Of a stretch of 37,088 nucleotides of DNA, positions 9,281 to 9,431 are shown piece by piece. The number at the start of each line of letters is the position of its first letter. The first letter of the stretch is position 1. The notes below the pieces were generated by a model. That model did not search any database. It had not been told where the DNA came from and saw only the letters and a list, made by a program, of their open reading frames with translations. Source of the stretch: Escherichia phage T7; the sequence record OL964748.1. One strand, written 5' to 3'. Made by a program: the position numbers and the translations under genes.

Positions 9281-9303
9281 TAATTGAACTCACTAAAGGG
9301 AGA
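9281..9303 (+). promoter_or_regulatory. T7 promoter phi3.8
   Basis: aattaattgaactcactaaagggaga. Confidence 0.8.
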
Positions 9304-9342
9304 TGTGGAGAGGCACTGTAACAGCTGAGGGTAAACAGCATA

Positions 9343-9431
9343 ACTTTCGTAGTAGAGATCTATTGGAAGTCGTTGCGTGGATTTATAGAACTAGGAGGGA
9401 ATTGCATGGACAATTCGCACGATTCCGATAG
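9343..9431 (+). pseudogene. 3.8: 3' remnant of gene 3.8 (HNH homing-endonuclease-like); start codon and ~277 bp absent
   Basis: Only ~108 bp separate phi3.8 from the gene 4A start versus ~385 bp expected; stop TAG at 9429..9431 retained; the in-frame ATG at 9303 gives only a 42-codon fortuitous ORF. Confidence 0.65.

Follow-up and report, generated by a model that had tools for sequence, protein, structure and literature searches.

Genes 3.8 and 7.7 of a genome-reduced phage T7 were probably lost by two different routes

Genes 3.8 and 7.7 of phage T7 are both reduced to short 3' remnants in sequence record OL964748.1, the 37,088 bp of which form the stretch of DNA analysed here, referred to as the window. 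According to the first-pass annotation, which was made from the letters alone, both losses begin at the start codon, keep just enough 3' sequence for the translation signals of the following gene and look like deliberate scarless knockouts. The question raised by this locus is whether the two deletions indeed have the same designed origin. In the text, the window positions of genes, gene remnants, promoter phi3.8, ribosome-binding site, intergenic spacer and deletion junctions written with two dots all refer to the + strand.

When aligned by BLAST with the reference genome NC_001604 (39,937 bp), the window was identified as phage T7 with many deletions, the two sequences matching in collinear blocks at about 99.9% identity with 11 gaps. 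The closest record was OL964749.1 ("Mutant Escherichia phage T7 clone T7_1t2", 37,063 bp), which is 99.9% identical to the window. This clone and T7_1t3 (OL964750.1), the two siblings of the window, are T7 mutants derived by the CiPGr procedure and selected for fast killing (PMC9825161). The accessions beside OL964749 and OL964750, namely OL964747 and OL964751, are mutants of the Salmonella phages selz and seszw. As these are the other phages of Yuan et al., the accession series is tied to that study (PMC9825161).

In CiPGr (Yuan et al., NAR 2022, PMC9825161), phages are serially passaged on hosts that contain Cas9 and carry a plasmid library, the passages of T7 on E. coli numbering hundreds. 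Each plasmid provides a single spacer together with a repair template of 2 x 50 bp, which directs the deletion of either 100 bp ("cassette-100") or a whole gene ("cassette-gene"); in the cassette-gene design, one pair of homology arms per gene is common to all the spacers of that gene. The product of gene 7.7 figures on the list of deleted genes. Undesigned deletions were also seen by these authors, a part of which is probably explained by escape from CRISPR (PMC9825161). A signature of this type is present in the window. Four deletions of exactly 100 bp, blunt or near-blunt, affect genes 1.7, 4.3 and 4.7 and the interval T7 39565-39664, all four being common to the window and both siblings, and gene 1.4 has lost exactly its ORF (T7 7608-7763). 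The broader idea of an engineered genome, already put forward before any alignment, is thus borne out by the CiPGr origin and by the designed 100-bp and whole-gene deletions present in the window, for example those of genes 1.4, 1.7 and 7.7. Taken as a whole, we consider it probable that the window is a CiPGr genome-reduced T7, in which gene 7.7 was lost through a template and gene 3.8 was lost without one, between repeats.

Compared with NC_001604, gene 7.7 has lost 369 bp (T7 19848-20216), corresponding to 123 codons. The left breakpoint is T7 19848, the initial G of the GTG start codon, and T7 19847 is joined to 20217. The junction (17476..17477) is blunt, with 0 bp of microhomology. On its left side, all 13 nt of the spacer that separates gene 7.3 from gene 7.7 (TCAGGAGGTTATC, 17464..17476, equivalent to T7 19835-19847) are retained, including the 7.7 Shine-Dalgarno sequence AGGAGG at 17466-17471. 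On its right side, sequence and translation reveal the last seven codons of 7.7 and its stop (RKTWRHI*, 17477..17500). The own Shine-Dalgarno sequence of gene 8, GGAGA (17487-17491), sits in this retained 24-nt tail with the TAATG stop/start overlap, and gene 8 itself, which encodes the head-tail connector (17500..19110), is identical to that of T7. The 36-nt stretch (17464-17499) that follows the stop codon of gene 7.3 (17461-17463) and ends before the ATG of gene 8 (17500) had been described as a ribosome-binding site joined to the end of 7.7 with the overlap preserved; this description was accurate, the coding part consisting of the last seven codons and the stop.

To follow both deletions through the available phage genomes, 40-41-bp queries centred on each junction were searched among 50,697 phage records. 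Centred queries were preferred because a whole-region megablast ranks two-piece matches to wild-type T7 above single-piece matches to the junction. The exact 40-bp junction of 7.7 was found in nine records only, eight MZ375 clones and OL964749, all of them from CiPGr. Two of the eight MZ375 clones were examined, T7_250L (MZ375281) and T7_300L.2 (MZ375294), which represent the cassette-gene line at transfers 250 and 300. The same 7.7 interval, 19848-20216, is deleted in both, as is the gene 1.4 interval 7608-7763, despite the fact that most of their other deletions differ from those of the window (in the 0.x genes, in 1.7, 3.8, 4.3, 4.7 and 5.3, and at the right end).

The occurrence of an identical junction in nine records, all CiPGr clones, argues for a designed and templated event. 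Judged from its sequence, the 7.7 allele is a designed, template-directed whole-gene knockout, which presumably matches the synthesized template. Cas9 would have cut within 7.7, after which recombination with the whole-gene template would have joined T7 19847 to 20217. The last 24 nt of the gene would have been kept by the template, allowing the gene 8 Shine-Dalgarno sequence and the TAATG overlap to survive.

The situation is different for gene 3.8. Here 277 bp are lost, corresponding to T7 11186-11462 in the rightmost of 10 equivalent placements, the leftmost being 11177-11453; by exact extension, the left flank is identical to T7 through 11185 and the right flank from 11454. The deletion is bounded by a 9-bp direct repeat, AAAGGGAGA (T7 11177-11185 and 11454-11462), of which a single copy survives at the junction (9295..9303). 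The left copy covers positions -3..+6 of promoter phi3.8 and the right copy lies in codons 77-80 of gene 3.8. The left breakpoint is thus located 39-48 nt upstream of the ATG at T7 11225. The proposed sizes of 277 bp for 3.8 and 369 bp for 7.7 were exact against NC_001604, and the claim that the losses begin at the start codons was right for 7.7 (GTG, T7 19848) and wrong for 3.8. The first-pass annotation had made its reading depend on this coincidence; at 3.8 the alignment places the breakpoint in the AAAGGGAGA repeat instead.

Lost with the deletion are 39 nt of the 5' leader, among them the ribosome-binding site, and codons 1-79, which encode the whole HNH_3 domain (aa 14-56). Promoter phi3.8 (TAATTGAACTCACTAAAGGGAGA, 9281..9303, positions -17..+6 with +1 at 9298; start at 11180 in NC_001604) is fully retained. 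What is left of gene 3.8, in frame, consists of codons 80-121 and the stop (M80-R121, ending in FARFR, 9303..9431), identical to the C-terminus of gp3.8. This remnant comprises 129 nt, 42 codons and a stop, instead of the 89 bp that had been estimated. A search of Pfam gave no match for the 42 codons, and the AUG of the remnant, 5 nt from the start of the phi3.8 transcript, is devoid of a usable Shine-Dalgarno spacing.

The ribosome-binding site of gene 4A, AGGAGGG (9393..9399, T7 11552-11558), lies inside the 3.8 remnant. The 108 nt announced between phi3.8 and gene 4 were found again, counted from window position 9298 up to, but not including, the ATG of gene 4A at 9406. It had also been pointed out that the translation signals of both downstream genes are preserved, which is the case (AGGAGGG for gene 4; GGAGA and TAATG for gene 8). 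For gene 4, they are retained because of where the repeat happens to lie, as a by-product rather than by design. The ORF of gene 4A, encoding the primase/helicase (9406..11106), is intact; it carries three missense changes, K41T, A184S and G457V, and one silent change, K41T being situated in the zinc-binding/primase region.

Among the 50,697 phage records, the 3.8 junction was present only in OL964749 and OL964750; it was absent from the other CiPGr clones and was not found in non-CiPGr records of this set. Among the three sibling clones, the 277-bp junction is common to the window, T7_1t2 and T7_1t3, and the 369-bp junction of 7.7 is common to the window and T7_1t2 only. Among all possible 277-bp deletions of T7, a junction microhomology of at least 9 bp is obtained for just the 10 equivalent placements of the deletion observed here. 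Only one direct repeat of the region is longer than the AAAGGGAGA pair (9 bp, 44% GC), namely ACTAAAGGGA, the left copy of which likewise lies in phi3.8.

In the proposed mechanism, the DNA would have been rejoined between the phi3.8 copy and the codon 77-80 copy of AAAGGGAGA, one copy being kept and 277 bp lost, either by microhomology-mediated joining or by slippage between direct repeats. The rejoined genome would most likely have been favoured because it escaped Cas9 cleavage within the 5' two-thirds of the gene. Candidate SpCas9 cut sites (NGG-adjacent) number 33 in the deleted part of the ORF and 10 in the retained part of gene 3.8; since these 10 are left, the deletion need not escape every possible spacer. 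Two main causes have been described for the escape of T7 from Cas9, namely point mutations and the microhomology-mediated joining of 8-15 bp repeats on either side of the cut (PMC11294054). Microhomology-mediated joining in T7 is reported to depend on the T7 ligase gp1.3, and gene 1.3 is full length in the window (359-aa ORF, 4849-5928), with no point change listed. We infer that Cas9 cutting, and not spontaneous slippage, triggered the 3.8 deletion.

The alternative that best survives is precisely that of spontaneous replication slippage between the 9-bp repeats, unrelated to Cas9, the deletion being fixed by drift, by hitch-hiking or by selection for a shorter genome. In its favour, other repeat-flanked deletions are found in the window, in regions classical for spontaneous T7 deletions, with repeats of 13 bp (0.3-0.7), 17 bp (phi1.1A/B), 9 bp (T7 541-653) and 7 bp (7.3). 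The passages also extended over very many generations (>2000), and the 12-bp deletion in gene 7.3 is, from the alignment spans, apparently also present in AY264778, an unrelated laboratory-evolved T7. However, gene 3.8 is non-essential and of the type targeted by the library, and microhomology-mediated joining, a reported main escape route of T7, accounted for 9 of the 10 escapers at a gene 4.3 site (PMC11294054). Slippage departs from escape after Cas9 cutting in the trigger alone, which the sequence cannot separate, and we regard it as unlikely.

The regulatory consequences of the deletion lead to a further possibility. The wild-type phi3.8 leader is strongly structured (z = -4.2), and no notable structure was detected in the new leader created by the deletion (z = -1.0). 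The position of the RNase III site R3.8, downstream of the point where phi3.8 transcription starts (PMC6938266), places it inside the deleted interval. The deletion keeps phi3.8, now 108 nt upstream of gene 4A, and eliminates the structured leader with R3.8, the ribosome-binding site of gene 3.8 and its HNH domain. R3.8 was linked by Jack et al. (PMC6938266) to the way in which the class II transcripts of genes 4 to 6 are processed and to how stable they are. All three clones of the T7_1t lineage carry the 277-bp deletion, and in this fast-killing lineage it might have been selected for its regulatory effect (loss of R3.8 and altered gene 4-6 transcripts) and not just as an escape from Cas9; we hold this to be improbable. 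In any event, the R3.8 regulatory element has also gone with gene 3.8, and scoring this loss as a clean knockout would therefore misattribute any phenotype.

Next comes the interpretation by which both deletions are designed and scarless, the 3.8 template deliberately keeping phi3.8 and the 3' end that bears the gene 4 ribosome-binding site. The genome does come from an experiment with designed repair templates, and both phi3.8 (-17..+6) and the gene 4A ribosome-binding site are intact. On the other hand, the 3.8 breakpoints lie in a 9-bp direct repeat, away from the start codon. In the cassette-gene design, one pair of arms is shared by all the cassettes of a gene (PMC9825161). In T7_250L and T7_300L.2, the 3.8 deletion measures 292 bp (T7 11254-11545, with 3 bp of ambiguity) and starts 26-29 nt inside the ORF, leaving the leader and R3.8 in place; the 277 bp of the window correspond neither to this size nor to 100 bp. 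Furthermore, apart from the two siblings, the junction is absent from every other clone of the study, and the chance that a designed junction would show a 9-bp microhomology is about 2.5e-4 or less. A designed origin of the 3.8 deletion is thus very unlikely. The idea of deliberate scarless knockouts holds for 7.7, which is blunt, start-codon-exact and recurrent, and is abandoned for 3.8, with its 9-bp repeat, its off-design size and its restriction to two siblings.

HNH genes vary among T7-like phages, but the missing segments have a negligible chance of being natural T7-like variation or assembly artefacts: the junctions were independently assembled in two other genomes for 3.8 and nine for 7.7, a 9-bp repeat is too short for collapse during read assembly, both junctions are confined to CiPGr among the 50,697 phage records and the flanks are about 99.9% T7.

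The relationship between the genes concerned was examined with Pfam HNH_3 (PF13392), membership being defined by a whole-protein score of at least the gathering cut-off of 24.8 bits. The proteins gp2.8, gp3.8 and gp7.7 gave 26.1, 56.0 and 49.8 bits, respectively, and the three genes that had been called HNH-like therefore deserve this name. Gp2.8 shares 49% identity with gp7.7 across 128 aa (E=3e-36), and gp3.8 shares 41% identity with gp7.7 across 51 aa, limited to the HNH_3 core (E=5e-11). Gene 2.8, the HNH_3 paralogue of 7.7 (7975..8394, T7 9857-10276), had been presented as intact. Its ORF is full length, but its sole nucleotide difference from T7 (10248 G>T) is a missense change, G131V. 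As predicted from what remains of them, the 3.8 and 7.7 alleles of the window are nulls of non-essential, putative HNH_3 endonuclease genes. Since the window is a published synthetic-biology construct and not a natural variant, the fact that only one of its HNH_3 genes is left out of three is uninformative on the natural dynamics of homing endonucleases. Gene 5.3 (14124..14480) was considered as a fourth HNH paralogue and rejected: Pfam assigns its product to the predicted PD-(D/E)XK endonucleases instead (PDDEXK_5, 42.1 bits), and it is intact in the window and identical to T7.

The comparison of sibling clones sheds light on the lineage of the window. Beside the 3.8 junction and the 100-bp deletions, the window, T7_1t2 and T7_1t3 have in common the 0.3::0.7 fusion, the gene 1.4 deletion, the 12-bp deletion of gene 7.3 and most point changes. 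The differences between the window and T7_1t2 are the gene 5.3 deletion, the phi1.1A/phi1.1B deletion and a few point changes. Gene 5.3 is intact in the window; the loss of the 100-bp interval T7 16642-16741 is confined to the two siblings, OL964749 and OL964750.

Going by the names of the siblings, T7_1t... and, in the paper, T7_100_t2, these clones would come from the 100-bp library, yet deletions of the whole-gene type (1.4 and 7.7) are present in the window. This combination weighs against the CiPGr explanation that we favour, which has to call on library cross-contamination or on population mixing to reconcile the two. Three point changes bear on this matter: T7 3721 A>G in gene 1 and T7 34067 A>G and 34172 C>T in gene 16 (window 2170, 31327 and 31432) are common to the T7_1t clones and to late cassette-gene clones, and are absent from the early clone T7_10L. 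They reflect either parallel adaptation or an exchange between the populations of the two libraries. Such an exchange would also account for whole-gene-type deletions in a clone of the 100-bp library, which points to populations of the two libraries having mixed or recombined.

In addition, the point changes form a mosaic, some being common to the window and T7_1t2 only and others to the window and T7_1t3 only (for example window 1062, 1422, 6252, 8366, 9955, 15450, 17036, 24235, 28580 and 30257), and the distribution of the 5.3 and 7.7 deletions among the clones fits no simple tree. Together, these two features indicate recombination among co-passaged lineages or recurrent templated editing.

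Several other changes were observed along the genome. The terminal repeat (1-151 and 36938-37088) measures 151 bp, compared with 160 bp. In it, the shorter AAGTCAATGACC replaces AAGTCAACCTTCGGTTGACC, a run of Gs has lost one G and a point change has occurred. The two ends of the window and T7_1t2 all show this form. At 364-428, directly upstream of the phiOL start and overlapping it, a 21-bp unit, AATCATTGTCTTTATTAATAC, is repeated 3.1 times in tandem. The unit is single in wild-type T7; the copy number of the window recurs in T7_1t2 and is apparently exceeded by one in T7_1t3 (22-bp offset). A 104-bp deletion between 9-bp repeats GTCAACCGG (window 574-582, T7 541-653) has removed the region of the E. 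coli promoter A2, annotated at T7 626. Further on, a 1480-bp deletion between 13-bp repeats AGGAAGTCGAGGA (junction 1173-1185) has joined gene 0.3, in frame, with the 3' portion of gene 0.7, and genes 0.4-0.6 and the N-terminus of the kinase are lost. The fusion ORF (854-1549, 231 aa) is annotated as "protein kinase" in the siblings. This deletion is undesigned and repeat-mediated. At 4281-4297, one hybrid promoter is left after the loss of 75 bp between phi1.1A and phi1.1B, the 17-bp cores of which served as repeats; among the three sibling clones, this deletion is found in the window only.

In gene 4.3, the deletion (window 11181-11183, T7 13343-13442, 3 bp of ambiguity) starts at +3 of phi4.3, and the initially transcribed sequence of this promoter is changed from GGAGA to GGCCA. 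A repeat-mediated origin was considered for it on account of a 10-bp BLAST overlap and was discarded: exact extension reduces the overlap to 3 bp (AGG) and exactly 100 bp are lost, which fits the 100-bp design. Finally, gene 7.3 (17176..17463) has undergone a 12-bp in-frame deletion at 17220, between CGTTAAG repeats, which is common to both siblings. Its product has 95 aa, compared with 99, four residues being lost from the lysine-rich N-terminus. Its apparent presence in AY264778 as well, judged from the alignment spans, suggests a recurrent change.

The window is therefore an engineered phage of a published kind; both losses are of an already known type, and nothing in them is biologically new. 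Its interest is that a single genome holds the two outcomes of Cas9 action, blunt templated deletions that are exact to the codon or to 100 bp and repeat-bounded ones, including that of gene 3.8.

Deletion mutants of T7 that formed between short direct repeats, reportedly isolated by Studier and colleagues, are said to have arisen spontaneously, without any selection by Cas9. The 3.8 junction of the window resembles them by its short direct repeat, of which a single copy is kept. The second known system is the escape of T7 from Cas9 (PMC11294054). It was described for gene 4.3 (repeat TCCAACGA) and for other sites, and the trigger in the window is deduced rather than observed. In this escape as in the window, a deletion between direct repeats in the range of 8-15 bp, with one copy kept, affects a non-essential gene, and the 44% GC of AAAGGGAGA falls within the preferred 30-50% GC reported for the repeats used in escape (PMC11294054).
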